DNA of 64,000 nt. Origin: Thiotrichales bacterium (GTDB taxonomy: Bacteria; Pseudomonadota; Gammaproteobacteria; Francisellales; CACEW01). The notes beneath the pieces are model-generated. The model did not search any database. It was not told the origin of the DNA and worked only from the letters and a program-made list of their open reading frames with translations. This document shows positions 41,115-61,121 of this stretch, one piece after another. Numbering within the stretch: the first letter of the stretch is position 1; every line of letters begins with the position of its first letter. A program made the translations under genes and the position numbers. The stretch spans positions 447 to 64,446 of the forward strand of contig CANJQG010000007.1 of assembly GCA_947476405.1 (NCBI GenBank), read 5' to 3'.

Positions 41115-41150
41115 TTTTATCTCCGTTTGTCATTAAAAATAAATCTTACG

Positions 41151-41279
41151 TTTAGATTAAAGCATCTAAATAAACAAATGTCTAGCTATATTTGCATTAA
41201 GCACCAATAAGTCAATGACGAATCGATGAAAAAAGATCTAAAAACGCGTTTTGTTTATTTTGAAAGATAGTGTTATACT
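41151..41279. promoter_or_regulatory. divergent control region with operator-like palindromes and a candidate promoter for the CI-like gene
   Basis: Palindromes: TTTAGAT-N6-ATCTAAA (41151-41170), AAATAAACAAA (41168-41178) versus TTTGTTTATTT (41250-41260), and perfect AAAACGCGTTTT (41241-41252). The candidate promoter is TTGTTT-17-TGtTATACT (41251-41279). Confidence 0.45.
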
Positions 41280-41309
41280 GGGATTTTTATAGATGAATGT
41301 GAGGCTATC

Positions 41310-41984: not shown

Positions 41985-42005
41985 AACAACTAAGGAGGTT
42001 CCAAA

Positions 42006-42266
42006 GTGAGTAGAAATATAAAGCAGGTGACGCATGATCTGCTTCCCATTATTGAGAGCATTGATGACTTGTGGAAAGAAGTGCAAGCAGCACAACATGA
42101 GCTTTTTGAGAGTTTGAAGCCTGAACATCCAGAAATCAAGGAAGCTTTTTTGAATAGCATCAAGGCGATAAGCGTTTTGGGTGTCCATACACAAACTGCC
42201 CTGGACTATCTTGCAGAGATGGATGATGAGGCCGATAGCGAGGGGATGGAGAAGAGCTATTATTAA
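42006..42266 (+). CDS. small acidic hypothetical protein (86 aa)
   Basis: GTG start with AAGGAGG 8 nt upstream, 21 nt after the repressor gene. Confidence 0.6.
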   Translation: MSRNIKQVTHDLLPIIESIDDLWKEVQAAQHELFESLKPEHPEIKEAFLNSIKAISVLGVHTQTALDYLAEMDDEADSEGMEKSYY

Positions 42267-44851
42267 GAATGCTTATTAAGAGCCTTTTGGACGTCATGTT
42301 TGTCGAGCGCAATTAAGTATTCTGGCAGGTCATCAAAGTGCGATCCTGAGATTAAGTACAGGTGTTCATAGCCGTCTGCGTGTAATTTTTTAGCCAGGTC
42401 ACGCCCGTTAAGCTCTTGAATGCCAAAATCATTATCCAGGCAAATGGGGGTATCTTTTGCATATTTTTCATGCTCTTTGATGAATAGATAGGGGTCTTCA
42501 TAATATTTAACTTTTTTATCTGATAGCTTGTAATCAATGATCGTTTTCATAAAACGCGGCTTGTCGTCTACAATGATGATATCCACTGGCTCAATGGCCG
42601 TAACTTCCCCTGGAGCCTTAAGATTGATGGGTACTTCTACGGCTAATACTTTCGGCAAGACCTTCGCTCCCAATAAGGCTGCGCGTGTCACAATTTCCTT
42701 ATTGGCGTAGTGACTGGTTACCAGAACAGAGTGCTTGATTCCAGAAGCTTCCAGTGCATCCAGGCCATTCATTTTTTGATTGAGCAGTTCATAATCAGTC
42801 AGCAGAAAAGTTGTGCTTTTTTCAGATTCCGTTAAGCTGATAATATAATCCAGTGCTTCAGCACCTTGTTCAAAGTGGACGACCTGTAAATTGTTGGCCT
42901 TAGCAATATCTTGAAAGCGGTGATCCCAAGCTCTGTGAATAACGGTAGAATCATCATCTAATACAATGACGATAGAGCCAGGGATAATTTCAATTTGGTT
43001 GGCAATCCAACCTGGAGTTTTGAGGAGGCGAAAAATCAGTTTAATTGCGGTGCCCTCGCCTATGGCTGAGTGAATTTCCATGCTGCCCTTGTATCGTTGC
43101 AAGGTTTGATGTGCATGATTGAGGCCGATACCGTGCCCATTTTCCTTATCCGCAGTAACCGCCTCTTTATTCATGATGCGTGCGATGAGTTCTTGAGGCA
43201 TTCCCTTGCCATTATCAGCGATGGAAAGAATGACATGTTTATCCGACACATCTAGAGCCACTTGAATTCTAGCCACATCTTTGCAGGCATCCACAGCATT
43301 ATTGATCATATTTGACAGCATACGTTTAAATTCAGTTTGATTGCCAATGATGAAGGCGAAATGGGCTTTTGGAGTGAATTTTGCTTTAATCTTAATATCC
43401 CTATTGCGGTATTGCAGACGTTTTTCTGACAGTATTTCGAGGATTAATGTGGAGATTAAGAGTTCCTGCCATGGCATCTTGTCTGAATGGTCTATTCCTC
43501 TTTCTTCGGTAATGCGATATTGATTGGTCACATTGTTGGCAATATCCTGAATAGTCTGAGTTGCCTCACGAAGTACAATCCGCTCTTCTTCTGGAATTCC
43601 AGTGCATTTTTGGGTTAGAACCAGTAATGCAGCGACGGGGGTTAGCATATTATGGGCGACTTGCGTGGCAATTGCCCCCAGCTTCTTTTTGGCCTGATCT
43701 TTTTCTTCTTTGAATTTAAATGCATTGGCAATAAAAGCCTGGAGGAAAATAAACTCTTCGATGCTGGAAGGCTTATGATCCATAAGACTTTTATCCTTCT
43801 CGTGCATCAATACTTCGATATTTGCAGTGATTTTTTTGAATGGTGCTTCCAAAGTTTTTCCCATAAAAACAGACAAAGTGATCACAATAACGGAGTAAAT
43901 CATAATGAAAAGGGGCAGACTCAAAAACACGTCTTTATTGACGATGGAGAATGAATAGCCAATCACAAAGAACAGCAAGAAGCTAATGACTGATACGCTA
44001 AAAGACCAGAAAACCAATTTGCTTTTGATGCTGGTGTTCTGTCTTACCAAGCTATCAATTGTATAGCTTTTGTCTTTAAGCAAATACATCAGCCCAAATA
44101 AAATGAAGGCCAGTCCCAATAGCCAAAGCAATTCGCCATAGCCCAGCAGGATAACAGTTTGTGAAATGTATGAATAAATGAGAAAAAAATCTCCTGACAT
44201 CAGGATGATAAAGCCGGATAAGAGCAATGAGAACCCTCTATTCTCTGAGTACATCAGGCATAAAATTGCAAAGTCGAAAACAATAATCTGGGCGATAAAA
44301 GTAGAGGCCTGAGCAATGGTATCGTCAGTCCATGCTCCCAGCGCATAATTGATGGAGGACAAAAAGAGGGAAATCACGATGAGATTCATAATTGCAAAAG
44401 GGATCAGCATTTTAACGTAGCGCTTTCGGTTTGGGATGGCTCGACGCAGCACAGCAGAGAAAAATGTGATAATGGCATAGATCCACAGATAAAAGGGAAT
44501 CAGGTCAATCAAAAACGCTACCAGTTTTGAATTGGGGCCTGTGGTGTTTCGAAAATAGGTGACCAAATAAAAAGAGAAATCGTTGGCTAATAGTCCGATG
44601 TTGGCAATGAGCAGCCACTTCAAGACTTTTCGGTCTTCTGCGGCAGCATTTTTGTATATCCTAAAAACAACAATCAACATGAAGACATGCACTAAGAATT
44701 CAATTTGTGCAGCGATATGACTGATTTGATCTGGAGTTTTGAGTTGAAAGGACTGCATCAAAAATAGCAGGAGCCAAATAACCAAGCAAAAAGAAATAAC
44801 GCCAGTAATTGTGTTAAATTTTTTCATCATCGGTATTTTCAAATGTCCCAC
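42263..44851 (-). CDS. hybrid sensor histidine kinase (polytopic N-terminus, DHp, HATPase_c, two receiver-like domains)
   Basis: About 10 TM segments. H-box QVAHNMLTPV, N-box MINNAVDA, G1 DNGKGMP and G2 GHGIGL are present. REC-like segments are VIVLDDD...LLTDYEL and IIIVDD...ICLDNDF. The start may be the ATG at 44830 instead of the GTG at 44851. Confidence 0.88.
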   Translation of the reverse strand: MGHLKIPMMKKFNTITGVISFCLVIWLLLFLMQSFQLKTPDQISHIAAQIEFLVHVFMLIVVFRIYKNAAAEDRKVLKWLLIANIGLLANDFSFYLVTYFRNTTGPNSKLVAFLIDLIPFYLWIYAIITFFSAVLRRAIPNRKRYVKMLIPFAIMNLIVISLFLSSINYALGAWTDDTIAQASTFIAQIIVFDFAILCLMYSENRGFSLLLSGFIILMSGDFFLIYSYISQTVILLGYGELLWLLGLAFILFGLMYLLKDKSYTIDSLVRQNTSIKSKLVFWSFSVSVISFLLFFVIGYSFSIVNKDVFLSLPLFIMIYSVIVITLSVFMGKTLEAPFKKITANIEVLMHEKDKSLMDHKPSSIEEFIFLQAFIANAFKFKEEKDQAKKKLGAIATQVAHNMLTPVAALLVLTQKCTGIPEEERIVLREATQTIQDIANNVTNQYRITEERGIDHSDKMPWQELLISTLILEILSEKRLQYRNRDIKIKAKFTPKAHFAFIIGNQTEFKRMLSNMINNAVDACKDVARIQVALDVSDKHVILSIADNGKGMPQELIARIMNKEAVTADKENGHGIGLNHAHQTLQRYKGSMEIHSAIGEGTAIKLIFRLLKTPGWIANQIEIIPGSIVIVLDDDSTVIHRAWDHRFQDIAKANNLQVVHFEQGAEALDYIISLTESEKSTTFLLTDYELLNQKMNGLDALEASGIKHSVLVTSHYANKEIVTRAALLGAKVLPKVLAVEVPINLKAPGEVTAIEPVDIIIVDDKPRFMKTIIDYKLSDKKVKYYEDPYLFIKEHEKYAKDTPICLDNDFGIQELNGRDLAKKLHADGYEHLYLISGSHFDDLPEYLIALDKHDVQKALNKHS

Positions 44852-45432
44852 GCTCCCTTTAGTAGCGTATCTTTAAAGCACATATCTGTACAGTCAATTG
44901 TGCCGAGAATTTCAGCACCCTCGTGTTTCATAAATAGTTTTGCCGCGCGATTTGATTCCCATACCACAAAGACCTCGCGAGTACAGTGGTTTGCGCGGCC
45001 TAAGTTTTTTCTATAGTTGATCAAAGTTTTATATGCGCTTGATCCTCGATAGGGTTTTGCAATGGTGGTCGCATAGACAACATAGTCTGTGTCTAAGACT
45101 TGCCGAGTATAAAAGTGGTTAATTCGGTGGAAGGCAGACGCTAGGTCATTTTCATCTCGATACCAGTTCGGAGTGCTGTGCTCAACTTCTGCGATTTCAT
45201 CCCGTTTTGCAGCAATAAAAAATCCAACAACATCATCGTCGCAAACCAGAATATGAGTATACTCAGCATAGGGCTTGAGTGTTTGAACCTTTTGGAATGC
45301 AATCGGTTTAAGATTTAACTTATTTTTAAGCGATGCCAGTTCATAGTATCCAGTCTCAAAGAGTAAATGAGCGACTTGATCCAGCTGTCCTTCGTTTAAT
45401 TCGTTACCTGTAATAAAGTGAAAATTTTTCAT
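44839..45432 (-). CDS. GNAT-like protein (197 aa), function unknown
   Basis: ATGA overlap with the upstream PnuC-like gene at 45429-45432. VVGFFIA...TIAKPYRGSSAYKTLI resembles GNAT motif A. Confidence 0.55.
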   Translation of the reverse strand: MKNFHFITGNELNEGQLDQVAHLLFETGYYELASLKNKLNLKPIAFQKVQTLKPYAEYTHILVCDDDVVGFFIAAKRDEIAEVEHSTPNWYRDENDLASAFHRINHFYTRQVLDTDYVVYATTIAKPYRGSSAYKTLINYRKNLGRANHCTREVFVVWESNRAAKLFMKHEGAEILGTIDCTDMCFKDTLLKGAWDI

Positions 45433-46082
45433 GACCGCTTTCTCATGCTCCTCAGCCAGCGTGTGAAACAAATGATATTCAGCACAATCAATAATGAGAC
45501 TGCAATCATATTGTACCAGTTGTGGGCTTTATATGCCAAAAGGAGGGAGAGCAAGTCACCGATAATAAAATAGATCCAGCTTTCTATTTTTTTGTAATTC
45601 AGCTGGATGGAGGCGATGAGGAGAAAGGTAAAGCTAACCGCGTCTGTAATGGGGGCGATATCATTCACCCGATGCAAAATAGAGTACAGAATCGCTGCCA
45701 TCACAATAATAGCCAGTAGTGAGAACAAGTGCGCCTTGAGGGGCATTCTGGATGTGGCAATAACAGGATTGGGGTAAGATCGATGATGTCGGTCGTGTAC
45801 CATGCTGTAAAGCATTTGTTTTAGGCTGTGGTTTCGGTGACGTGTCCAAATAAAAAAGCCATAGGTGGAAACTCCTGCCTGAATGATTTGCATGGCCGCG
45901 TTAGCGTAGGCATGGTTGATAAACATTCCTACTGCAACAAGACCGTACGCGGGCCAATTCCAGAAAAAATTCTCAATTCTTTCGTGATAGCAATACCATA
46001 AGTTGATGAATGTAGCGATGATTGCGCAGATACCTAATGCGGTCATAGTAAGGGGCGTTTTGCTTTGATCAATGAGGGCCAA
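45429..46082 (-). CDS. PnuC-like nicotinamide riboside transporter family membrane protein
   Basis: About 7 TM segments. The aromatic/Asn-rich pattern (NLWYCYHERIENFFWNWPAYG, FFIWTR, KAHNWYN) is reminiscent of PnuC. The start is uncertain (TTG 46082 or ATG 46046). Confidence 0.55.
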   Translation of the reverse strand: MALIDQSKTPLTMTALGICAIIATFINLWYCYHERIENFFWNWPAYGLVAVGMFINHAYANAAMQIIQAGVSTYGFFIWTRHRNHSLKQMLYSMVHDRHHRSYPNPVIATSRMPLKAHLFSLLAIIVMAAILYSILHRVNDIAPITDAVSFTFLLIASIQLNYKKIESWIYFIIGDLLSLLLAYKAHNWYNMIAVSLLIVLNIICFTRWLRSMRKRS

Positions 46083-46160
46083 TACTACAGTGCATACGGG
46101 GTTAAATCAATTATTTTCGTGAAGATTGGTTGATTTTGTTAAATAAGGCCAATCTTTGAC

Positions 46161-47528
46161 TCACTGTTTGTATTGATCCAAAATGCCGTTGGCAATGTCT
46201 TTAATTTCCTGGCTTGCTCTGCGTAAAGCCAGTCGATCCGTTTCTGAGATAGTCTTGCTTTCATCGGCTAGTCCCAATAATGCCTCCGTTGGAGCATCCA
46301 CATCATGTGCTACTGCGGCGCACATTTCACCAAATTTCTTTTTAACGCGATCTTTTTCATCTCTAAATTCAAAGGCATTGACGATAAAATTTTGTAAAAA
46401 TATAAACTCATCAATCGTTGATGCGTGTTGGTTTAGCTGGGTTTTGTCGTTTTTATGCATGAGCACTTCGATATTATGGGTGAGTGTTTTAAATGGGGTT
46501 TCCAGGCGCTTTCCCATCCAGATGGAAAGCAATACCACCACGACAGCATAAGCGGATACGAAAAATGAAAGCCCGCCAAAAAGATCGTTATCAATCATGG
46601 AGAATGTGTGAAGAATAACAAAAAAGCCAAGAAAGCTGCCGACTGCCACTCCAAATGTCCATAGGACGAGTCTACTGCGAATAGCATTGATTCTATTGAA
46701 ATGGTTTTTGATGGAAAAAGATTGGTGTTTATCAAGCAATAAAATGCCAAACAGCATGAAAATCAATGCAAGAAACCATAGCATTACCGCGTAGTTTGAG
46801 ACCATGGGGTCTGCATTTCCAACGTAGGAATAGTTGAATAAAAATGCGCTGGAAAGGATGCACGCGACTCCAGTCAAAAAGAATTGCATTCCCAGGTCTT
46901 TGGCGCACATCATACATAATAGGGTGAGTTCCAGTAAAACCAATTCACAGAGGGAGGAAAAATTAAACAGAAACACGACATCTGAATAGATAGGGGAGAA
47001 GTTCAAGGCGGCAACAACCCCTAGAAAGGCTGACAGGTATGCATTATGGGAGTAGAAAAATAGCAGAATCAGCACTAAGTTTGCCGTGGCGAGTAAGGTA
47101 AATAAGATAAAAAAAGTGCTGTGTTTCAAAACATAGGAGAACAGTGATTTGCCCACAAAAACCATTAGAGTCAGTAGCCAGGTCAAATAAGGAAGATAAA
47201 ACAGCAGAAATCGAGCCCAGAGGCCAAGTGGATGGCCGTGTTTACTGGCGAGCATCATAATATGATAGGACGTTTGATTTACAAATAGGGCCAGCGTGGA
47301 TAGGAGGAGCCAAATAAACAGGCCCCTGTCAGCGGTATCTATTTTGCGAAATACCTTGATGGTATAAACAATGGTAATTGCTTGAATAATTAGCTCAATC
47401 AGATCAAACGAATATTTGACCTGGTAATGCGTCCAATCATGGGGAGAAACAACCAATAGACCCAATATCGCCAAAAAGATGACCGTGCAGGTTCCAAAAC
47501 AGATCGGGTAAACGGCGTTTTTCATTGT
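46161..47528 (-). CDS. membrane sensor paralog ending after the DHp (H-box) domain; lacks ATPase and receiver domains
   Basis: It is colinear with the N-terminal 470 aa of the 42263-44851 kinase (for example NIEVLMHKNDK..IDEFIFLQNFIVNAFEFRDEKDRVKKKFG..VAHDV). The stop falls right after ..DIANGILDQYKQ. The ATG at 47528 has GGAGGG 9 nt upstream. Confidence 0.75.
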   Translation of the reverse strand, partial: TMKNAVYPICFGTCTVIFLAILGLLVVSPHDWTHYQVKYSFDLIELIIQAITIVYTIKVFRKIDTADRGLFIWLLLSTLALFVNQTSYHIMMLASKHGHPLGLWARFLLFYLPYLTWLLTLMVFVGKSLFSYVLKHSTFFILFTLLATANLVLILLFFYSHNAYLSAFLGVVAALNFSPIYSDVVFLFNFSSLCELVLLELTLLCMMCAKDLGMQFFLTGVACILSSAFLFNYSYVGNADPMVSNYAVMLWFLALIFMLFGILLLDKHQSFSIKNHFNRINAIRSRLVLWTFGVAVGSFLGFFVILHTFSMIDNDLFGGLSFFVSAYAVVVVLLSIWMGKRLETPFKTLTHNIEVLMHKNDKTQLNQHASTIDEFIFLQNFIVNAFEFRDEKDRVKKKFGEMCAAVAHDVDAPTEALLGLADESKTISETDRLALRRASQEIKDIANGILDQYKQ

Positions 47529-47553
47529 ACATTCCCTCCATAATCTGGGCAGT

Positions 47554-48348
47554 TTAGACTGCAATGGGTGCTACAATTCTGGGGTGACACTGATAATTTT
47601 CAATAATAAAATCTTCAAATTTATAATCGAAAATTGAGTCTGGTTTGCGCGCTATTTTAAGCTGTGGCACTGGAAAAGGCTCCCGAGACAGTTGCAGTTT
47701 AGCTTGTTCCAAGTGGTTGCTATACAGATGTGTATCTCCGCCTGACCAGATAAACTCAGAGGGTTCCAGGTCGCATTGTTGCGCAATCATATAGGTCAGT
47801 AGCGCGTAAGAGGAAATATTAAAAGGAAGTCCCAAAAATACATCACAGCTGCGCTGATAAAGTTGGCAAGATAGTTTCTTTCCCGAAACATGAAATTGAA
47901 ACATTGCATGACATGGCGGCAGAGCCATTTCTCTGACTTCACCAGGATTCCATGCAACAACCATGAGAGGGGCGTCGCTTGGATTTGTTTTAATCTGATT
48001 GATAATATTGGTGATTTGATCAATCACTTGTCCATCGGGTGTTTCCCAGCGCCTCCACTGTTTGCCGTACACAGGGCCAAGGTCGCCATTTTCATCAGCC
48101 CACTCATCCCAAATGGTAACGCCATTTTCATGCAGATAGCGAATGTTGGTGTCCCCGCTTAAAAACCAGAGTAATTCGTGGATGATGGATCTGAGGTGGA
48201 CTTTTTTAGTCGTTACCAATGGAAATCCTTTCTGTAGGTCAAAACGTAGTTGTCGGCCAAATACGCTATAAATGCCAGTGCCAGTGCGGTCAGCTTTGAA
48301 TTCGCCGTGGTCTAAAATATCCTGCATTAGTTCAAGGTATTGTTTCAT
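47554..48348 (-). CDS. thyA: thymidylate synthase
   Basis: 264 aa. [25 protein letters not shown], the active-site PPCH and the C-terminal ..APIAV are ThyA-like. Confidence 0.97.
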
Positions 48349-48515
48349 TTTAAGAATCCTTTGCGCCCTAAAAAATTGTAGTGTTTATTCTACCATAAGC
48401 GTGATCTATGTGAAGACACGGGAGCCCTTAAATGTATTGATTTTTATGTGACACATCCTTGCTATTGTTTTTTGTTTTGAAGGATAATGGAGTCATAACA
48501 CAAGGCGATTTGACT

Positions 48516-48992
48516 ATGAAAAAAGAAGTGTGCTCAGGCAGTGTCAAGGATATCGATTTTATCTATGATGAGCTCAAAAAAGATTTTGATGAGCAGGGTA
48601 TTTTATACCGCTTCAAATATTCAAAGGATGAGTTTAGAGACTTGTTGTTTGGTGAGCGCCCCATTGCGAATGTACTGATTCTTTTGGCTGATGAGCAGCC
48701 AATTGGTTTTGCAATTTATGCGATTGACTGTAGAAACTTCACGGTGTTGTGTTCTTCGACCCTCTATATCAATGACTTGTACATCATAAAATCGCATCGA
48801 AGAGGAGGTGCGGCCACGTTTCTTTTTGAAGCGCTCAAGGACATTGCCAAGCAGGAAAAGTGCGGTAGGCTTGAAGGCATTGTGCTTAAAGATAATGAAG
48901 GTGCTATGGATTTTTATGAAAAATTCCTGCATGCCAGAGTGCTTTCTTCTTTCAATTATATGCGTTTGGAATTGGAAGAAAAGAGCAATTGA
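48516..48992 (+). CDS. GNAT family N-acetyltransferase
   Basis: Motif A is YIIKSHRRGGAATFLFEAL. The ATG at 48516 (MKKEV..) is preferred to the ORF-track start 48459. Confidence 0.8.
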   Translation: MKKEVCSGSVKDIDFIYDELKKDFDEQGILYRFKYSKDEFRDLLFGERPIANVLILLADEQPIGFAIYAIDCRNFTVLCSSTLYINDLYIIKSHRRGGAATFLFEALKDIAKQEKCGRLEGIVLKDNEGAMDFYEKFLHARVLSSFNYMRLELEEKSN

Positions 48993-49009
48993 TTGAGGCT
49001 TGCGCTTCC

Positions 49010-49645
49010 TTATCTCTCCAGGCTTGCTCGAATAGGTGACCCATCTACTTCCTTTATGTTTAAAGGATAAATGCGGGCGTAATAAAGTCCGGCAGGAACC
49101 TCTTTTAACTCAAGATTTTCGACAATCAGGACGTCATGAGAAAGCAATTCGCGATGGACGGCAAAGCTATCATCTCCATGTGCATCCACGCTTAAGTAAT
49201 CTATGCCAACGATTTTTACTTTTTTCTCTCGAAGATATTGGGCTGCTGCTGGGCTAATTGCAGTGTACTCTTCCACATATTCTGTGATTGCAGAATTGGG
49301 GGTTTTAAAGAAAACAATATCTCCCTCCTGAATATCTTGGCCAGCCAAATTTTCAGGGTAGATTAATGGTGTGCCAGGGCCAACCTCAATTACAAGGCAG
49401 CGCCCCATTAAATGTGACAGTCTAAAGTCAGCACTGGTTTTGCCGCCTCGAATAAAGTGAGCGGGGAAGTCGATGTGTGTTCCTGCATGATTGCTCATAT
49501 GGATATGGAGTAAATTACAAGCATCCTCTTTATCAAGGCTGGAAATGCACTCTTTTGAAAATGCGGGATCTCCTGGATAGATTAGCATCCCAGAGTGAAT
49601 GAGCTTGGTAATATCATAAAAGACAACAGGAGCAGAAAATAGCAT
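49010..49645 (-). CDS. cyclase-family protein (kynurenine formamidase-like)
   Basis: HAGTHIDFPAHF matches the HxGTHxDxPxH cyclase/arylformamidase motif. Confidence 0.85.
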   Translation of the reverse strand: MLFSAPVVFYDITKLIHSGMLIYPGDPAFSKECISSLDKEDACNLLHIHMSNHAGTHIDFPAHFIRGGKTSADFRLSHLMGRCLVIEVGPGTPLIYPENLAGQDIQEGDIVFFKTPNSAITEYVEEYTAISPAAAQYLREKKVKIVGIDYLSVDAHGDDSFAVHRELLSHDVLIVENLELKEVPAGLYYARIYPLNIKEVDGSPIRASLER

Positions 49646-49710
49646 GGGTTCCCTTTGGGTATGTGTTGCATTTTATTTTAGCACATTTTTTTTACCTGCG
49701 TTTCTGAATA

Positions 49711-50025
49711 CTAATGCCGAGGCGTGCTCTCAATTCTTGAAATCATATTTTTTGACTCTTCAAACATTTTCTGCAAATCGACAAGTTCAGCCTGTTGTTC
49801 TGCTGTAAGTTCTTTCTTGTGCCAGTTTTCAATATTATTGGCAAACCAGTCAAATTGATCATTCAAATACGCTTTTATTTTTTCAAAGTCGGAGCGCTTG
49901 GAATCTTCCTCGAGATTTTCAAGGGTTTCAGTCAGCATATTATTAAATAATTTAATTAGATTGATGAAGTCAGTAATGACGCTAGCTGGAAGGTCATTTA
50001 AGTCATCGATCATAGATTTTTCCAC
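49711..50025 (-). CDS. hypothetical acidic helical protein (about 100 aa)
   Basis: ORF only. The start is either GTG 50025 or ATG 50013. Confidence 0.45.
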   Translation of the reverse strand: MEKSMIDDLNDLPASVITDFINLIKLFNNMLTETLENLEEDSKRSDFEKIKAYLNDQFDWFANNIENWHKKELTAEQQAELVDLQKMFEESKNMISRIESTPRH

Positions 50026-50178
50026 TTGTCACCAAATTTTATGTATATTTAAAGTTTCGTTGACATAAATGATAGCAATAATTATTTAAATAAGCAAATT
50101 TATTACACATGATGATATTGTTTTTCGTTATTTATAAATAAAGTATACAAATGTTAAAATTCTGTAACAAATGTTCAA

Positions 50179-50207
50179 TTGACTAGTTTTATGCATGAGA
50201 ATATAAT
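50179..50207 (+). promoter_or_regulatory. near-consensus sigma70 promoter (TTGACT-17-TATAAT)
   Basis: Read directly in the AT-rich 217-nt intergenic region upstream of paralog A. Confidence 0.5.
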
Positions 50208-50242
50208 TGATCACATGGTTAGGTTAAAAACTTATAAAAAAA

Positions 50243-51385
50243 ATGAAAATAACAAAAGCATCATGGCCAAGTGTAAAAGACAATATTGCCAATTGTTCTC
50301 CAGAGTTAGTAAATCATCTTAATATTATTTTTAAGAAAAATCGTTCTCTTAGGACGTATATCGCAGAATATAAATATGGTGATGTGATTGCGCAGCAGGG
50401 AATGCTAGATTTGCAAGCATCAGAGCAAAAATTTGCCTTTGGCCTGGTTCTGAAGGGTGGATTGGAAGTCTTTATTCAAAATGATGAGGATGACTGCAAG
50501 GTAACAACGCTCGCGATGCTCCAGCCCGGAAATCTGCTTTTTTTACACGAAGATCTTGAGCCATCCTCGATCCCACTTGATTTGCAGTATGTCACCGCAG
50601 GGGCGCGATCCATTTTCTTTCTCGCCCAATTAGGTGATTCCGATCGTCTCTTCCATTTTTCCAAATTGAATAATACGCCGATGTGCATGCCAGCATCCAT
50701 TTTTCACCAGTGGGAACTTTTTAAGGCATTGGCCAGTGCTCGCAATTCCGATTGGAGCGCGAAGGTCATTTTATTTTCAGAAGATTGGCTTAATCAAAGT
50801 GGCAGTGCTGAACTTAAGCACTATCTGACTAAACAAGGTGTGCCCACTCCTGATTTTCAATCGCATCGGCAGGAAATTGATGCAGCAGTGGCGGGGGTCA
50901 TTCAACGAAAAAATGAAGTCCATGCAGGTCAAATCCTGAAAAATATTTTATCAATTGCCGCTGGGGATCTGCCAGGTTTCAGCTTTGCAGAAGATGAGAC
51001 CTTTGCCCCCGTTAAATTAATTCGTGAGGCCTTCGGTAAAGATTATGGTCTGGAACTGACAGAGCTCATGCAACCAGGTTATATCCGCGCAGGCGTCGAT
51101 TGCTTTTATTCGTTTGCGTTTAATAGTAGTGTTGATCAATACGCGCGTCATCATAAGAAAGGACGCCAGTCCAGTCTTGAGGTGATGCGCGAAACCCAAA
51201 ACCTATACAGTCGTCTGACGGAAGTCGGTGGCTGGCATCGAGGAGACATATATGACTTAGCCAAGTTAGAGTTTTTACATGCAAAAGCAAAACAGAATCT
51301 TTCGCCGGATCAAAAATCTAATCAGATCCACAGCAAGCAGTCCCCCTTTCTACGACAGGGCTGCATCTTAATTACTCCCCACTAA
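50243..51385 (+). CDS. hypothetical protein, paralog A (380 aa)
   Basis: It is homologous along its length to the next ORF. Shared motifs are SW..VK, Y.YG..IA, PGN(L/I)L, (V/L)TAG.RS(I/V), LPGF/IPGF...(K)(L/Q)I(R/Q)EA(F/Y) and a C-terminal FL..GC.(L/R)I. Confidence 0.75.
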   Translation: MKITKASWPSVKDNIANCSPELVNHLNIIFKKNRSLRTYIAEYKYGDVIAQQGMLDLQASEQKFAFGLVLKGGLEVFIQNDEDDCKVTTLAMLQPGNLLFLHEDLEPSSIPLDLQYVTAGARSIFFLAQLGDSDRLFHFSKLNNTPMCMPASIFHQWELFKALASARNSDWSAKVILFSEDWLNQSGSAELKHYLTKQGVPTPDFQSHRQEIDAAVAGVIQRKNEVHAGQILKNILSIAAGDLPGFSFAEDETFAPVKLIREAFGKDYGLELTELMQPGYIRAGVDCFYSFAFNSSVDQYARHHKKGRQSSLEVMRETQNLYSRLTEVGGWHRGDIYDLAKLEFLHAKAKQNLSPDQKSNQIHSKQSPFLRQGCILITPH

Positions 51386-51412
51386 AATAACTAAAAAAAG
51401 AGAGGTCTTATC

Positions 51413-52675
51413 ATGGCAGTTAAAATGTCGGTGTCGCCCTTTGTCGCCATCAAAAATCCAAAACCACAAAAGGCTATAACCGAAGTTTCCTGGAAGGAAG
51501 TTAAAAAAAGAGTGCAAGCAGTTAGGCCAGACCTGGTGAAAATATTGGATAAACTGGATTCACCCCACCCATTATTTCTCAATACCTACGGCTATGGCGC
51601 GACCATCGCTGACCCTCAAATGAACCCAGGCTTGAGCCTGATCTTGGAAAAGCGCTGCGAGCTCTTTTTTGAATATCCCGATATCAAACCCACCTACAGA
51701 GTTTATCGCCCAGGAAATATCCTGTGCGCCTGGCATATTTTTGCCGATAAAATGCAGCCGCAAGCGCATGATCTCTGGAAACTCACCGCAGGCTGCCGCA
51801 GTGTCTATATGCTCCCCAAAATTTCAGCATTGCGAAACCATAAAGTTATCCAGAAAAAATATGATATTGGGGTCGTCAGCCCACAGGAGCTTGATGATCA
51901 CTGGGATGTGTTTTATCTCATCGCTAACAGTAAAGTGAATAACCCTGAAAACTCCTGGAAGGCCACACTGCTGACCTTTCCAGATGAGTGGTTCACGCAT
52001 CGAGATGATCCCGCCTGGGCCCCATTTTATCACTGCATTGAACATTCACTGACAGAATATCGAACCATTGATGCAAAAGGCCCCTGGCTGGATTCAATAT
52101 TCGGTGGCCTCATGCGTGAAAAAGACATCAATATGACCGACCCGCTGAAAGAACAGATGAAAAGCTTAGTTTTGTTGGCCTCCAGCGGAATTCCTGGTTT
52201 TAGAGAGGCTGATGAGGAAGCGCTGCCCCTCAAGCAGATCCAAGAAGCCTACACCAAGCATTACGGCATCAAAGAATACGCGCCAATCATCGTTGCCCCA
52301 GAATATATGAATTGGCAGCCAGAAAAAAATCTGTACTATTCCTTGAACCATCCTACTTCCTACATGATTGCCCCTTACAGAAATAAGCGCAAAAGTATGG
52401 TGCGCTATATGTTTCAGCTGTATTGGAATTTTGAGAGATTGCGCAGTTATGTTTTTAAAAAACTGAAAGTATCTCCTGACTCTGAAATGTATCAAGTTCT
52501 GTCGCAATACGCCTTTGATTTTTATCATGATGAGGCTGTGGAATTTGATGTGTTCAAATTTCCTGAGCAGATTGTGAAGGATGATCCTGATTTTATGAAG
52601 TCCTGGCCTGGTCGTAGTTTGCAGGCGCATAGTTATTTTTTAAATGGGTGCGTGCGGATTCAGAGGAAAAGTTAA
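51413..52675 (+). CDS. hypothetical protein, paralog B (420 aa)
   Basis: See paralog A. The two genes are separated by 27 nt. Confidence 0.75.
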   Translation: MAVKMSVSPFVAIKNPKPQKAITEVSWKEVKKRVQAVRPDLVKILDKLDSPHPLFLNTYGYGATIADPQMNPGLSLILEKRCELFFEYPDIKPTYRVYRPGNILCAWHIFADKMQPQAHDLWKLTAGCRSVYMLPKISALRNHKVIQKKYDIGVVSPQELDDHWDVFYLIANSKVNNPENSWKATLLTFPDEWFTHRDDPAWAPFYHCIEHSLTEYRTIDAKGPWLDSIFGGLMREKDINMTDPLKEQMKSLVLLASSGIPGFREADEEALPLKQIQEAYTKHYGIKEYAPIIVAPEYMNWQPEKNLYYSLNHPTSYMIAPYRNKRKSMVRYMFQLYWNFERLRSYVFKKLKVSPDSEMYQVLSQYAFDFYHDEAVEFDVFKFPEQIVKDDPDFMKSWPGRSLQAHSYFLNGCVRIQRKS

Positions 52676-53172
52676 TTCTCTATCCGATAAAAGCGACATG
52701 AGGTGCCTTTAACGATTTCATCTTTATAGTGCTTCATGCCGCATTTTTCCATGACTCGCTGCGATGCTGTATGGGCAGCGGGCGCATAACCTATAATAAA
52801 GTCTGCTTTAATGTGATCCTTTGCCCAATGCAGAGAAGCGGTCAATACTTCTGACGCGTAGCCTTTATTCCAGAATGCCTTATGCAGCACATATCCAACC
52901 TCAATTTCACCCGTGTCAATGAGTCCAAAGCCAGCGCGCCCCACAAATTTCTGTGATTCCAATTCAAATACAGCGAAGCCGGGTATTCCTTTGTCACGGT
53001 AAAAATCTAAAAAATCTTGCATGCGTGCTGCACTCTGTTCAAGCGTTTGCACGCCATCTGGAAAAAACTGTCTGACCTCAGGATCGGCATTGAGTTTGGC
53101 CATCTCAGGTAGGTCAGATTTTTCGATGGGGCGTAAGCCTAAGCGCGCGGTTTGAATCATGTATTTTTTCAT
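52672..53172 (-). CDS. GNAT family N-acetyltransferase (RimJ/RimL-like)
   Basis: TARLGLRPIEKSD, NADPEVRQFFPDG and FWNKGYASE show the Acetyltransf_3-type pattern. Confidence 0.85.
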   Translation of the reverse strand: MKKYMIQTARLGLRPIEKSDLPEMAKLNADPEVRQFFPDGVQTLEQSAARMQDFLDFYRDKGIPGFAVFELESQKFVGRAGFGLIDTGEIEVGYVLHKAFWNKGYASEVLTASLHWAKDHIKADFIIGYAPAAHTASQRVMEKCGMKHYKDEIVKGTSCRFYRIEN

Positions 53173-54065
53173 GTCAGTCCTTGTGGCATCATTGAAGTGG
53201 GCAAGAAAAACTCAATAAACCGCTGTACTTTAGGTTTCATGTGCCGTGTCTGCGGATAGTGATAGTAAACGCTGGCATTGATGGCCTGATATTCCGAAAG
53301 CACTTCAATCAACTCACCGCGCTTTAACAAATCCTCCACCATATACAGCGGAAGTTGAATCAGGCCTAGATGTTGCTTGGCGCATTCAATCATCGAGGCA
53401 ACGCTGTTGACCTCCAGATAAGGTTGAAGTGAAAGCTGATATTTTGATTTCAGCTTGATGATCTGGTGATTGGGGCGCGCGATATGCGAAATATAATGGT
53501 GTTGATGCAGATCCTCCAGCGTTTGGGGAGTGCCTTTTTCAGCAAAATATTGGAGCGAGGCACAGAGAATATAGCGCGTAGTCGCCATTCTTTTTTGCAC
53601 GACTTCGCCTGGATTGGGAACAGGCAGGGCAAAACCCAGAGCAAGATCAATCTGCTCTTCAATAAAATTAGGCACGCGCTCGGTGGTATCAATACGCAGG
53701 GAGATTTTGGGATATTGCTCCAGAAAGCTTTTGAGTCTGGGGAAAATCAGTTTCTGTGCAAAATAACTAAAGGCGACGACATGTAAATGCCCCTCAGGCT
53801 CATCATGAAAGTGCTTGCAGAGGCTGCGCGCTTCATCCAATTCATGCCTTAGGCGAAGACATTGTTCCAAAAGTGACTCACCTTGGTCGGTCAGAGTAAT
53901 CCTCTGTTTATGGCGGGTGAAAAGCGTGATATTAAAATCAGCTTCCAGGCGTTTGATTTGTTTGCTTAATGCAGCCTTCGTCGTTTTGAGTTGGCTCGCA
54001 GCTTGTGTAATGCTACCCAATTGCGCTACATGCGTGAAAATTTCAAAGCGATCTAAATCAGACAT
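53169..54065 (-). CDS. LysR-family transcriptional regulator
   Basis: The LysR HTH is FEIFTHVAQLGSITQAASQLKTTKAALSKQIKRLEADFNITLFTR. The ATG at 54065 is preferred. It is divergent from the MFS gene. Confidence 0.9.
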   Translation of the reverse strand: MSDLDRFEIFTHVAQLGSITQAASQLKTTKAALSKQIKRLEADFNITLFTRHKQRITLTDQGESLLEQCLRLRHELDEARSLCKHFHDEPEGHLHVVAFSYFAQKLIFPRLKSFLEQYPKISLRIDTTERVPNFIEEQIDLALGFALPVPNPGEVVQKRMATTRYILCASLQYFAEKGTPQTLEDLHQHHYISHIARPNHQIIKLKSKYQLSLQPYLEVNSVASMIECAKQHLGLIQLPLYMVEDLLKRGELIEVLSEYQAINASVYYHYPQTRHMKPKVQRFIEFFLPTSMMPQGLT

Positions 54066-54165
54066 GATGTCAACTAAAAAGAAACACTTGTTGCATATTA
54101 TAGCACTATTTAGTTTTTTAAGAAACAACTATAATGGGGTATAGTTCAGAAAAGAGGATCAATAG

Positions 54166-55506
54166 ATGATGCAGAAAAATAACACGATTGCTTTAACGGC
54201 GCTCTGTCTGGGCTTTTTTATGGTGATTATGGACGTCACGATTGTGAATGTGGCTCTGCCCAGCATTGCCCTCAATTTGCATACGACGATTTCAGGTTTG
54301 CAATGGGTTGTGGCTGGATATACTCTGGTGTTTGCCTGCTTTCTGTTGTTTGCAGGTCACTTAGCCGATCAGATTGGCGCACGGAAAAATCTAATCGCTG
54401 GACTGGTGTTTTTCGTTATCACTTCTCTGGCTTGCGGATTGGCCCACACCATTCAGGAGCTCATTCTGTTTCGCCTCTTGCAGGGAGCGTCTGCAGCAGC
54501 ATTGGTGCCCTCATCACTCACATTGATCAAAACTCTGTATGAAGATAAAAAAGAGCTGGCGAAAGCAATTGGCATTTGGGGTGGCGTAGGTGGAATCGCC
54601 GCAGCGGCAGGCCCCGTATTGGGTGCGATTTTGACATATTGGATCAGTTGGCGTGCGGTATTCTTTGTGAATATCCCGATTGGCCTTTTTGCAATTATTT
54701 TGGTGATCCATTCAGTCGGTGAGTCGAAAATAAATCCTAATGTCCATTTCGATTTGAAAGGTCAGATCGCAGCAATCCTGATGATTGCCAGTCTGGCCTT
54801 TGTTTTGATTGAAGGCGGAGATCTTGGCTGGTCATCAATCATCGTGATGATTGCAGGTCTTGTTTTTGTGTTGAGTTTGATCACATTCATCCTGATTGAG
54901 CATCATGCCAGGCAGCCCATGTTTCCCTTGTCCTTTTTTAAATCCAGGCCTTTTACCATCTCAATGATCATCGGTATTTTTTTAAACGCCGGATTGTATG
55001 GCGAGCTTTTTGTACTGCCCCTCTATTTTCAGGGTGAACGGGGTTATAGCGTGATGATGACAGGCTTTGCGATTTTACCTTTGCTTATTTTAGTGGCGCT
55101 ATCATCGTATTCAGCAGGAAAACTGGCAAGTCATTATGGGCCGAAATTACCGCTTAGTTTGGGGTTAATCATTGGCGTGCTTGGATTTTTCAGTTTGTTG
55201 ATTGTGGGGCAGCATACGCCAAATTATGCGTGGTTGATTGCTCCTCTTGCAGCAGTTGGCTTTGGTACTGCATTGACGATGCCTGCTGCAACGATGATTG
55301 CGATGCACGCCTTGCCGCCAGATCGTGCGGGGATTGCCTCTGGCGCTTTTAATACCAGTCGGCAATTGGGCAGTTTAATTGGTGTTGCAGTGTTTGGAAC
55401 AGTGATTGCTGCATCTCAGAGTTTTATGCATGGGATGCATGTAACCCTGATTATTGCTGGGGTGCTCTTTTTCATTGGGTTTTTGTTGTCATCTTGGCTC
55501 AAATAA
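54166..55506 (+). CDS. MFS transporter, DHA2 (EmrB/QacA-like) drug:H+ antiporter family
   Basis: LTALCLGFFMVIMDVTIVNVALPSI and LFRLLQGASAAALVP are typical DHA2 motifs. The protein is polytopic. Confidence 0.88.
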   Translation: MMQKNNTIALTALCLGFFMVIMDVTIVNVALPSIALNLHTTISGLQWVVAGYTLVFACFLLFAGHLADQIGARKNLIAGLVFFVITSLACGLAHTIQELILFRLLQGASAAALVPSSLTLIKTLYEDKKELAKAIGIWGGVGGIAAAAGPVLGAILTYWISWRAVFFVNIPIGLFAIILVIHSVGESKINPNVHFDLKGQIAAILMIASLAFVLIEGGDLGWSSIIVMIAGLVFVLSLITFILIEHHARQPMFPLSFFKSRPFTISMIIGIFLNAGLYGELFVLPLYFQGERGYSVMMTGFAILPLLILVALSSYSAGKLASHYGPKLPLSLGLIIGVLGFFSLLIVGQHTPNYAWLIAPLAAVGFGTALTMPAATMIAMHALPPDRAGIASGAFNTSRQLGSLIGVAVFGTVIAASQSFMHGMHVTLIIAGVLFFIGFLLSSWLK

Positions 55507-55592
55507 ATCCGCAACATTCAGCTTTAAAGTAATTGATAAAATATTTTTATTGGGTGATAATGGTCGGCATCAATCATGCATCGTGGTGCAAC

Positions 55593-56768
55593 ATGAACAT
55601 TCATTTAATTATCATTCACAGCGGTGAAAACGTTGGCGATAAAAACCAATCTCTTGGTATTGCAACAGCTTTAGCCACTGAGCAATCAAGTGGCGTGGTC
55701 ACGCGTGAGGAATGCTCGGCCAAAGATCAGTCTATTGATGCCCTCAATGCAAAAATAGCAGCCGTACTGCATGAGGGGAAGCAGCTCATTTTGATTAGTG
55801 CAGGCTCAAGTGGTCTCAGCGTACTGCATGCATTAAAGCAGGCATTTCCAGATGTCAAAAGCATCTGGAGTGGGCATCAGGTATTTGCAGAAGTTGGGTT
55901 ATTTGAAAGTGCTGCGGCACCCGACGTGATGGCTTTTCCAAAGCATCAGCAGAGTTATATCCCTGAATATCTGAAGGCGAAAACGCAATTGGTCTTGACG
56001 GATGGGGTGCCGCATAATCTTTCTGCAAGCACAATTGAGGCAGACAGGGCAGCATTTATGAGTAAGCGCAGAACTTTGCCTGAGTTTATGAAAAAAACTG
56101 CGGTGGTAATTTTGCCGGGAGATGCGCCGGATATGCGTGGAATGGAGAAGATATTCACACCAGAAAATGCCCTTGCGTTAGCTGAGCGCGTTCATCGACT
56201 TTATCCTGAGTATGCCTTTGCGGTCACCAATAGCCCACGTACAGGAAAATATCTTGACCCCATCAATGCTCATCGAGCGGGCGGTATTGATCCTGTAACA
56301 GAAGCATTTGTAAAACGATTGGCTGAATTAAGCGGATGCACGCCTGCATTGTATGACTTTCAATTTGCATCACTTCCCAGTGCTTATAAGCCCTTGCTCT
56401 ATGCCGTAAAAACAAGCGCTGGAAGTATACTGCTCTGTCCAGGAGAATCCACCTCAATGGTCACAGAAACATTAGGCTATCTGCCACGTGAAAAGGTCGT
56501 CATTATGGAAGTGCCAGAAGTCATGAGCGAAGCGCATCATGAGCATTTAACAGAAGTGAGTCGAATGGGTGGCGTGCAGATACTTGAGTCTGCGGGAACT
56601 GTTGGTCAGTCAACAGCGATAGTGACAGAGCCTTCTACTGAGCTTGCAGCCAGTCAAATTGCAAAAAGGTTTATTGCGCCAGGATCATCCACTTCTTTTT
56701 TGTTTAAATCAAGCGCCGCCTCTTTGGAGGATTATGAGCCAGACAACAGAGAGTGGAGTCGTGAATAA
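55593..56768 (+). CDS. hypothetical protein (about 391 aa); possible ELM1/DUF1022-like fold
   Basis: IIIHSGENVGDKNQSLGIATAL resembles the N-terminal motif of ELM1-family proteins (weak, from memory). The start is uncertain (ORF track 55533). Confidence 0.5.
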   Translation: MNIHLIIIHSGENVGDKNQSLGIATALATEQSSGVVTREECSAKDQSIDALNAKIAAVLHEGKQLILISAGSSGLSVLHALKQAFPDVKSIWSGHQVFAEVGLFESAAAPDVMAFPKHQQSYIPEYLKAKTQLVLTDGVPHNLSASTIEADRAAFMSKRRTLPEFMKKTAVVILPGDAPDMRGMEKIFTPENALALAERVHRLYPEYAFAVTNSPRTGKYLDPINAHRAGGIDPVTEAFVKRLAELSGCTPALYDFQFASLPSAYKPLLYAVKTSAGSILLCPGESTSMVTETLGYLPREKVVIMEVPEVMSEAHHEHLTEVSRMGGVQILESAGTVGQSTAIVTEPSTELAASQIAKRFIAPGSSTSFLFKSSAASLEDYEPDNREWSRE

Positions 56769-59264: not shown

Positions 59265-59758
59265 TTGAATATCATATGACTCAAGAAGATGCTCAGTATT
59301 TCGCTGACTATTTTAAAAAATTAGGCTGGCATAAACCGCTTTCTCAGCTTGAGGCCTATATTGCAGAAGCACAGCAAGGAATTCGCACCAACCTGGTTGC
59401 TAAATCAAATGGCTTGCCGGTTGGTTATCTAACGATTTTATGGGAATCCGATCACCTCTATTTTCAGGAGCGCCATATTCCAGAGATCAAAGACCTGAAT
59501 GTATTCCCCGCTGAAAGAGGGAAAGGTTTTGGCAAGGCACTTCTGCAAGCAGCTGAAAAATATGTGTTTGAACGCAGTAAAACAGTGGGTTTAGGCGTGG
59601 GGCTGACGCGTGATTATGCGGTGGCACAAATTCTGTATGTAAAACAGGGCTATATCCCCAATGGTGAAGGTGCAACCTCATATCATGCCCCTCTTGAGTA
59701 TGGCAAAACCTGTCAGGTGGATGATGATTTGGTGTTGTGGATGGTGAAGCATGTTTGA
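59261..59758 (+). CDS. GNAT family N-acetyltransferase
   Basis: Motif A is FPAERGKGFGKALLQAAE. ATGA overlap with the upstream gene. Confidence 0.8.
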   Translation: MIEYHMTQEDAQYFADYFKKLGWHKPLSQLEAYIAEAQQGIRTNLVAKSNGLPVGYLTILWESDHLYFQERHIPEIKDLNVFPAERGKGFGKALLQAAEKYVFERSKTVGLGVGLTRDYAVAQILYVKQGYIPNGEGATSYHAPLEYGKTCQVDDDLVLWMVKHV

Positions 59759-61121
59759 AACCAAACGCCTTATTTTAAGAGCGTGGAGGGATGAGGATAT
59801 CGCACCCTTCGCAGCAATGAATCAAGATCCAGATGTCATGGAATTTTTCCCTTCTACTTTAGATTTTGATGGTACAAAAGCATTGGTTGAACGGATTCGA
59901 CAACATTTTAAGACGCATGGGTTTGCGGTGTTTGCAGTGGAGTTAAAAGCAACAGCTGAATTTATTGGGTTTGTGGGATTAATGATTCCTGGTTTTGAGG
60001 CCCATTTTACGCCGTGTGTTGAAATCGCCTGGAGAATTGCCAAGAAATTTTGGAATCAGGGCTATGCGACAGAGGCTGCAAAAATGGTGCTGCATCTTGC
60101 CTTTGAAAAACATAGTTTGGAAGAAGTGGTGTCCTTCACGCCCACATTGAATAAGCGTTCCATGAGAATTATGGAGAAGATTGGTATGCGGCATAATTTT
60201 GAAGATGATTTTGATCATCCCAAGCTTGCGAAAGATCATCCCTTATCCCGCCATGTTTTATATCGCTTGAGCGCAAAAGAATTTCAACAGCGTGATGTTA
60301 TTTTAAAAACAACCTTCTCTTTGTTCACCTGTTTTTGCAGAGGTGATTCTCAATCAGGAAATCTGGCTGCTATTGTTCAGGATTTCAAGGGTGATGCTGT
60401 AGAAAAACAAGCCTTTGCAGCAGAGTTAAATCTTCCAGTCACCGTTTTTATTGAAAATGCAGAGATTCCAATCCTACAGTTTTTTTATCCCAGCAGCGAA
60501 AGTGTTCTGTGTCTACACGGTGCGCTGGCCTCAGGAAAATACCTGATGCATCTACGAAAAACAGATACATTGACGGTGAAAATACAGTCTGGGCAAACTC
60601 TGAAAATGATGAGGCAAGGTGATCGTGTGCAGGTCTTGATGCCGCAGGCGGAGATTTTACCAGTAGAGATCAATGTCGCGAGCATCGCCAAAATGCTCCA
60701 GATCGATGCTGATCAACTCGATTCCAGTTTCCCATGCGTCGCTGCAAGTCTGGGGAGTCCAAAATTGCTTGTGCCCATCAAAGCTGCGGCAGCTCTCAAT
60801 CATCTGAAGCCCGATTTTGATTTCATCAAAAAATGGAGCATTGAGAATCAGGTCAATGGTCTCTATGTCTACAGCGCTGATGCTGCTCCTGGAGTTGATT
60901 TTATTGCGAGAGGGTTCAATCCGAAAGGCGGCTGGAATGAAGATGCAGCCACTGGGGTTGCAGCGGGTACATTAATTTCTGTTTTGCCGAAATCCACCCA
61001 AAAAGATTTTGTGATTGATCAAGGTGATACAATGGGGGCGCCCAGTCGCATTTATGTTTCTTTGGCTGAGGATCGGCAGATTTTAGTAGGTGGAGAGATT
61101 CATGAAACTACATGCAAATGA
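59751..61121 (+). CDS. fusion protein: N-terminal GNAT acetyltransferase + C-terminal PhzF-family isomerase-like domain
   Basis: aa 1-180 are GNAT (RLILRAWRDEDI, FWNQGYATEAA, NKRSMRIMEKIGM). From aa 190 on the sequence is PhzF-like (GNLAAIV, NLPVTVFI, LCLHGALA, ARGFNPKGGWNEDAATGVAAGTL). Confidence 0.78.
   Translation: MFETKRLILRAWRDEDIAPFAAMNQDPDVMEFFPSTLDFDGTKALVERIRQHFKTHGFAVFAVELKATAEFIGFVGLMIPGFEAHFTPCVEIAWRIAKKFWNQGYATEAAKMVLHLAFEKHSLEEVVSFTPTLNKRSMRIMEKIGMRHNFEDDFDHPKLAKDHPLSRHVLYRLSAKEFQQRDVILKTTFSLFTCFCRGDSQSGNLAAIVQDFKGDAVEKQAFAAELNLPVTVFIENAEIPILQFFYPSSESVLCLHGALASGKYLMHLRKTDTLTVKIQSGQTLKMMRQGDRVQVLMPQAEILPVEINVASIAKMLQIDADQLDSSFPCVAASLGSPKLLVPIKAAAALNHLKPDFDFIKKWSIENQVNGLYVYSADAAPGVDFIARGFNPKGGWNEDAATGVAAGTLISVLPKSTQKDFVIDQGDTMGAPSRIYVSLAEDRQILVGGEIHETTCK

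Follow-up and report, generated by a model that had tools for sequence, protein, structure and literature searches.

A tandem pair of paralogous genes from an unannotated protein family, predicted to join a CRP-like beta-barrel to an alpha/beta domain

The DNA analyzed here, called the window, is a stretch of 64,000 nucleotides (nt) of contig CANJQG010000007.1 from a Thiotrichales bacterium. Two paralogous genes, termed A and B, were found in tandem in this window, preceded by an AT-rich region and a small divergent open reading frame (ORF). The features of the locus are as follows.

50243..51385, + strand: gene A, 380 amino acids (aa), a trimmed and divergent paralog (A clade)
51413..52675, + strand: gene B, 420 aa, a paralog near the family consensus (B clade)
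51400..51405, + strand: ribosome-binding site GAGAGG of gene B, in the 27-nt gap between A and B
50026..50242, no strand: AT-rich control region of 217 nt, shared by the small ORF and gene A
50179..50207, + strand: predicted sigma-70-type promoter TTGACT-17-TATAAT for the A-B operon, matching at 11 of 12 positions
49711..50025, - strand: small divergent ORF, 104 aa, which accompanies the pair in the closest relatives

The coordinates of the two genes agree with a first-pass annotation of this DNA, which had listed two ORFs of 380 and 420 aa placed 27 nt apart. The ribosome-binding site of gene B was read directly from the sequence and is located eight bases 5' of the ATG, and no terminator-like site was found on the + strand of the gap between the genes. 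The GC content is 43.7% for A and 44.5% for B, in a window of 43% GC. When A was compared to B by BLASTP, 339 residues were aligned with 22% identity (E 1e-19). The alignment extended from the N-terminus to approximately residue 325 of A, and the C-terminal F..GC.I block of both proteins was aligned in the multiple alignment. Together, the two alignments bear out the proposal that A and B are homologous from end to end. Eight sequence blocks had been proposed as shared by the two proteins; five were found literally in both, and the other three are real but had been written with a spacing that is off by one.

Neither A nor B matched any Pfam-A or NCBIfam profile at E<=1, and nothing consistent was found for their relatives (74 members in Pfam, 10 members in NCBIfam). 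At the same threshold PADLOC gave no match for A, B and the relatives P0019, P0025, and P0050, and PHROGs gave none for A, B and three relatives. A sequence search of the PDB with a 13-sequence profile returned only CooA, at E 0.03, and a 74-sequence profile returned none. None of ten family clusters checked carried a name, and the literature on the locus tags and accessions of plasmid pLPL and on Legionella with YcaO/TfuA was found to hold no description of the family. This is in agreement with the earlier statement that the proteins could not be placed in any family; neither a profile library that was searched nor a solved structure covers them.

The family is large. Searches based on a word index had returned no more than 4 relatives for B and 7 for A, with 11 in a further search, and implied a tiny family. 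That impression was corrected by an exhaustive profile search over 1.84 billion representatives, which identified no fewer than 1,094 clusters (50% identity) with a cutoff of E<=1e-3; of these, 591 reached E<=1e-30. The members are typically ~440 aa and have in common an N-terminal W..R..V...NP.L and a C-terminal F.[RKN]GC[IV].I motif. The family hidden Markov model recognizes B with an E-value of 1.7e-121 and A with 1.2e-84. GC content was between 29 and 46% in all 53 family loci of at least 5 kb, and the closest genomes bear titles of Francisellaceae or Francisella metagenome-assembled genomes (MAGs). Among 72,556 plasmids the family was found only in Legionella (27-29 records, mostly conjugative) and Francisella (one record), with conjugative Legionella plasmids accounting for 25-27 of the 28-30 plasmid matches. 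All plasmid members are annotated as hypothetical protein, and no member was found in the viral contigs searched. On plasmid pPC1000_2 of Legionella sp. PC1000 (locus L012, 6750-8089) the member is split into ORFs of 80 and 373 aa that both match the family profile, and is probably a frameshifted copy.

The ratio of nonsynonymous to synonymous substitution (dN/dS) was determined against strain L001, which is 96.6% identical to the window over 12.5 kb. The ratio was 0.062 for A and 0.020 for B, from which we conclude that both are real genes under strong purifying selection. The pair had been described as fast-diverging, a description that fits neither these ratios nor the age of the duplication. 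In a neighbor-joining tree the A-type and B-type proteins were found to form two separate clades, each of them monophyletic, and A precedes B in all nine loci checked (the window, L001, L002, L003, L009, L010, L074, L075, and L076). Loci L074, L075, and L076 are three further contigs that were taken specifically to test this order. Since the two clades are separate and the genes are in tandem in every locus examined, there was one ancient duplication, followed by strict co-inheritance of A and B. The A and B partners of L009 are 29% identical (E 9e-30). Elsewhere in the family, independent duplications have given adjacent members in L006 (60% identity), L014, L017, L019, L027, and L048. The overall pattern suggests a self-associating protein that may have become a two-subunit one, and the fixed A-then-B arrangement offers a test case for such a transition.

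Residue conservation was computed from 215 members of the family. Among the polar residues, those conserved are Y268 (100%), E75 (99%), R122 (97%), H346 (97%), S290 (95%), and Y43 (90%), and the family signature is [TS][AS]GARS.FMLPKI. B keeps TAG.RS..MLPKI together with all of the family-conserved polar residues. A keeps E75, R122, Y268, S290, and H346, its MLPK motif is altered by P128A and K129Q, and the A clade is without several conserved W, Y, D, and P positions and ~40 residues. The cysteine of the C-terminal block had been put forward as a catalytic candidate. However, Cys374 is conserved in only 89% of the sequences, with A, V, or L in its place elsewhere, and we have downgraded it as a nucleophile. 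Judged from the alignment, E75, R122, Y268, S290, and H346 are better candidates.

AlphaFold2 (AF2) models were obtained with a pLDDT of 79.6 and a pTM of 0.81 for A, and a pLDDT of 72 and a pTM of 0.76 for B. In the model of A, residues ~38-126 form a barrel, while the first strand (residues 2-6) and residues 130-380 make up a mixed alpha/beta domain. E75 and R122-S123 are located in the barrel, and Y268, S290, and H346 in the alpha/beta domain. When the models were compared to the PDB with Foldseek, only barrels of the CRP/FNR/PKA type, including those of CRP, NtcA, GlxR, and PKA, were returned as significant matches, the best having an E-value of 2e-4 for A and 2.6e-3 for B. The barrel matches have a probability of 1.0 and a TM-score of ~0.28 on the query; the TM-scores are low because about two thirds of the protein is without a counterpart. 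A Foldseek search of model A against BFVD added nothing. In both proteins an eight-stranded beta-barrel (jelly-roll) similar to that of CRP and the cyclic-nucleotide-binding (CNB) domain is predicted with confidence. The sequences themselves gave no significant match; PF00027 (cNMP_binding) matched 1 of 74 relatives at E 0.061, and hhalign against Escherichia coli CRP gave E 0.12. The first-pass suggestion that the N-terminal ~100 aa resemble such a barrel is therefore supported by the AF2 models and Foldseek, but not at the level of sequence.

The predicted barrel, eight-stranded and preceded by helices, resembles that of CRP/FNR proteins and the CNB domain (PF00027; Clr 7pza, Mycobacterium tuberculosis CRP 3mzh, NtcA 2xhk, PKA RI 5kjz). 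In the hhalign alignment, which is weak, strands beta4-beta6 of A (residues 69-107) are placed on residues 43-79 of CRP. By a mapping inferred from this one weak alignment, R122-S123 of A, a near-invariant Arg-Ser before the next strand, would correspond to R82-S83 of CRP, which bind phosphate. The phosphate-binding cassette of CRP contains Gly-Glu where the A/B family has an FGL consensus, and the spacing from the cassette to Arg-Ser is ~10-11 residues in CRP compared to ~24 residues in the family. Whereas CRP/FNR regulators carry a C-terminal helix-turn-helix (HTH), neither an HTH nor another output domain was found when 74 members were scanned, and the mixed alpha/beta domain is present instead. 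The cAMP-binding acyltransferase of Mycobacterium smegmatis (4orf) offers an analogy, in that a CNB-like barrel is joined to a larger domain that does not bind DNA. It is among the Foldseek matches of B (rank 22), where it covers the barrel only (110 columns), and its partner domain is a GNAT whereas that of the A/B family has no recognized fold. Cupin-fold enzymes have a similarly small beta-barrel, and weak Foldseek matches of B to StrC and cysteine dioxygenase were obtained at E 0.2-0.3. The CRP-type matches were 100-1000 times stronger, and the His/Glu metal triad of cupins has no equivalent in the family, since the barrel contains no conserved His and only E75 and R122 are conserved there. 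The CRP-like barrel is the only known element of the proteins; their architecture and C-terminal domain are undescribed in all libraries searched.

The region upstream of gene A had been called very AT-rich, and its GC content was measured to 20.7% compared to 43% for the window, which places it at the lowest 0.03 percentile among 217-nt windows. Among the promoter-like sites of this region, TTGACT-17-TATAAT ranks first. Such sites are in total no more numerous than expected by chance (10 compared to 8.7 ± 3.2). Both hexamers of the near-consensus promoter that had been proposed, and their spacing, are kept in L002 along with several upstream blocks. A is 56% and B 52% identical between the window and L002, and the spacer is still ~70% identical (window 50026-50242 compared to L002 2760-2964, with flanking proteins 51-56% identical). 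The L002 comparison is valid evidence for conservation of the spacer sequence. Among the conserved blocks, TCTGTAACAA.TGT is situated just 5' of the -35 hexamer and another reads GTTTC.TTGACAT.AAT; both are candidate operator sites for a regulator. Rfam gave no match in the window or in the 217-nt spacer. The small divergent ORF has a counterpart of 51% identity in the equivalent divergent position of L002 and is present in L001 as well, with a dN/dS of 0.18 between the window and L001. No match to it was found in Pfam or the PDB, while PADLOC gave one weak match to spbK (positions 56-126, E 8e-6). In other family loci the divergent position is taken by an unrelated small protein of the GerE/LuxR type.

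The pair belongs to a chromosomal block that is syntenic with L010 and L002, and the upstream genes are common to L010. Downstream of B the following genes were identified in the window.

52672..53172, - strand: GNAT (Acetyltransf_3, RimJ/RimL-type), Pfam E 1.4e-32, overlapping the stop codon of B by 4 nt
53169-54128: LysR
54166-55506: MFS
55533-56768: ELM1-like gene (PF06258), 74% identical to the gene (L002 5499-6686) that lies directly 3' of B in L002

The closest PDB chains to the GNAT encoded next to B are 3fbu and PA3944. A homolog is encoded two genes upstream of the pair in L010, and in 20 other loci the position of the GNAT is taken by a convergent S-adenosylmethionine (SAM) methyltransferase. 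The GNAT is a possible functional partner of the pair. Since the ELM1-like counterpart directly follows B in L002, the GNAT-LysR-MFS unit looks like an insertion between B and the ELM1-like gene in the window lineage. Three GNATs of RimL or related type are encoded within 12 kb of the pair (48459-48992, 52672-53172, and 59751-61121). The last of these (+ strand) is a 456-aa fusion of an Acetyltransf_3 GNAT and a PhzF-like domain. At 31566-37343 on the + strand, 13 kb upstream of the pair, a 1,925-aa protein is encoded that combines a MobA/MobL relaxase, an AAA_30/PIF1-like helicase, DUF7146, and a Toprim primase. This protein resembles one that serves the transfer of an integrated mobile element.

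Neighboring genes were counted in 60 non-redundant loci, the counts being without a genome-wide baseline. A SAM methyltransferase was found directly downstream, mostly convergent, in 20 of the 60 loci. These methyltransferases are of two unrelated folds, 17 having the class-I fold and 3, on Legionella plasmids, the tetrapyrrole-methylase fold. The class-I enzymes are closest, although weakly (E 1e-4 to 4e-3), to the peptide N-methyltransferase BamL and a daptide methyltransferase. An MFS transporter was found in 12 loci, a POT peptide symporter in 10, an NAD-binding protein of ~480 aa at position +1 in 9, a RimL-type GNAT in 3 (A/B clade only), and YcaO/TfuA/ThiF in 2. No homology was found between family members and their own recurrent neighbors.

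In several loci the member is found in an enzyme-rich operon. On the Legionella pneumophila Lens plasmid pLPL (locus L011, 5913-12119) the member is followed by an ATP-grasp ligase, ThiS, ThiF, YcaO, TfuA, and a 61-aa ORF. The member gene overlaps that of the ligase, a POT symporter is encoded upstream, and the ATP-grasp neighbor resembles amino-acid ligases. The pLPL operon is likely to specify a thioamide-forming pathway; its YcaO and TfuA genes were listed as being of unknown function in the 2011 genome paper (PMC3218107). In L009 a PLP (pyridoxal phosphate) decarboxylase, PGA_cap, a penicillin amidase, an aminotransferase, a 149-aa protein, A, and B are tightly spaced in this order. In L007 the member is followed by a peptide-type ABC importer (SBP_bac_5 and permeases). 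The order in L008 is member, 414-aa protein, methyltransferase, MFS, and PhyH; the 414-aa neighbor was considered as a family paralog and found not to be one.

Conjugation genes (tra, trb, or virB) adjoin the member in seven loci (L009, L010, L011, L012, L071, L072, and L075), and AlpA and ProQ adjoin it in L076. On a Legionella israelensis plasmid the member diverges from traY, a position that we take to be where an F-type leading region would begin. Three Legionella plasmids carry an ORF of 64-66 aa on the - strand between the methyltransferase of the tetrapyrrole-methylase fold and the MFS gene (L071 8128-8322, L012 8890-9087, and L072 8084-8284). All copies begin with MS..EK..Y and contain an ACE motif close to the C-terminal end, and by tblastn the ORF was found on only 2 plasmids. 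It is a candidate for a precursor peptide or a small partner protein.

The best-supported reading of these observations is that A and B are the two subunits of a cytoplasmic enzyme that binds a ligand and acts on a metabolite of the amine or peptide type, because the partners modify amines or peptides, the transporters are of the peptide and drug type, and invariant polar residues are present in both domains. We consider this reading tentative, with a probability of roughly 0.35. A and B would be co-transcribed and co-inherited subunit types of one cytoplasmic protein, with B as the canonical subunit and A as a trimmed derivative. Each chain would have its CRP/cNMP-binding-like barrel set inside the alpha/beta domain. 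The barrel might hold a small anionic ligand, and the protein might chemically process an amine-, amino-acid-, or peptide-type metabolite. It would do so together with neighboring N-modifying enzymes (the GNAT here, SAM methyltransferases elsewhere) and with MFS, POT, and ABC transporters. That the two chains form a heteromer, bind a ligand, and catalyze a reaction on this class of substrate is what we infer. Of the functions suggested in the first-pass annotation, that of a niche-specific enzyme is the most plausible.

Several observations weigh against an enzyme of this kind. No catalytic motif and no known enzyme fold were recognized in A or B. The alpha/beta domain (~250 residues, approximately two thirds of the protein) has no structural match in the Foldseek search of the PDB, and the invariant positions are mostly occupied by Gly, Pro, or aromatic residues, suggesting structural roles. 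The pair is alone in its own operon in the window, and the GNAT is convergent and not co-transcribed. The neighbors vary greatly between loci and their frequencies lack a genome-wide baseline, while the adjacency of methyltransferases in related organisms may in part result from shared descent. A more far-reaching version is more doubtful. It holds that A and B form a heteromeric enzyme with a catalytic domain not seen before, which makes or modifies a metabolite derived from an amine or a peptide (perhaps a ribosomal one), and that this trait is spread by conjugative elements among Legionella- and Francisella-like bacteria. If true, both the enzyme class and the natural-product pathway would be new. 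Even as it stands, the family is large and strongly constrained, and it is represented in none of Pfam-A, NCBIfam, PADLOC, PHROGs, and the PDB. Knowledge of its chemistry might bring to light an enzyme fold that is new, and a mobile trait, metabolic or competitive, among relatives of two pathogen genera. Its current value is that of a well-delimited family with testable residues and partners.

Not all of the alternatives exclude an enzyme. The proteins may instead be non-catalytic sensors, in which the barrel would detect a metabolite and the C-terminal domain would pass this information on, through protein-protein contact, to neighboring enzymes, transporters, or regulators. The sole recognizable module is the effector-binding barrel of CRP/FNR regulators, most of the invariant residues are non-polar, and regulators are commonly encoded nearby: the divergent GerE/LuxR-type protein in L006, L023, L038, and L011, a LysR in the window and in L004, XRE on plasmids, and two-component or GGDEF-EAL genes in the largest neighbor cluster. 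Two-component genes are, however, abundant in any genome, and the 74 members gave no HTH or other output domain. The ~250-residue C-terminal domain is moreover the better-conserved part, with invariant Tyr, Ser, and His, and in several cases an enzyme operon starts with the member gene. We regard a sensor as rather unlikely. Somewhat less likely still is that the genes are cargo of conjugative elements with a role in conflict or establishment, such as anti-defense, exclusion, or a toxin/antimicrobial module with self-protection. The predominance of conjugative Legionella plasmids among the plasmid matches is consistent with this, as are the adjoining conjugation genes, AlpA/ProQ, and traY, the relaxase upstream of the pair in the window, and the plasmid module of member, convergent methyltransferase, 64-66-aa ORF, and MFS, which resembles a producer/export or resistance cassette. 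Against a role in conflict, A, B, and three relatives had no match in PADLOC or PHROGs, the viral contigs searched yielded no member, the pair is part of a syntenic chromosomal block (L010, L002) with a GC content like that of the window, and the strong purifying selection is without the rapid turnover typical of conflict genes.

A new class of maturation enzyme for peptides that are made on ribosomes and modified after translation (RiPPs), modifying a short precursor encoded nearby, is a special case of the two-subunit enzyme, and we consider it improbable. YcaO, TfuA, ThiS, and ThiF act jointly in thioamitide RiPPs (PMC9576775), and two independent links of the family to this set were found, in L006 and on pLPL. 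The resemblance of the methyltransferase neighbors to BamL and the daptide methyltransferase and the 64-66-aa ORF with its C-terminal ACE motif on three Legionella plasmids point in the same direction. The methyltransferase similarity is nevertheless weak and the plasmid peptide rare, neither the window nor most of the metagenomic loci have a conserved short ORF next to the pair, and no RiPP recognition element was detected. We find it very hard to sustain the earlier suggestion that A and B are secreted effectors of the Dot/Icm type. It would agree with the concentration of the family in Legionella-like organisms, the lack of annotation, and the AT-rich flank. In contrast, the C-terminal residues are predicted by the models to form a conserved buried beta-strand of the core (F..GC.I) and not a flexible, disordered signal, no eukaryotic-like domain was found in A, B, or 74 members, and no Dot/Icm genes were seen within the window. 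In addition, a member is carried by a Francisella plasmid, members are found inside metabolic operons, and a dN/dS of 0.02-0.06 reflects strong constraint. Nothing that indicates secretion was found.

The comparison with strain L001 gave a further observation. The 217-nt spacer is 100% identical between the window and L001, and we considered this as a sign of constraint. The interpretation was rejected because the two strains diverge in a mosaic pattern, and identical tracts as long as 886 nt are present outside the spacer. When window positions 40630-53171 were compared to L001 142-12682, 0-1 differences per 250 nt were found across 46.5-48.5 kb, as opposed to 17-32 across much of 50.4-53.1 kb. 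This suggests that the segment containing A, B, and the GNAT has recombined with a more distant lineage. L001 (CAMARA010000001.1) is titled as a MAG of Francisella tularensis subsp. holarctica. Since its stretch has a GC content of 43% whereas that of F. tularensis is ~32%, the title is probably a mislabel.

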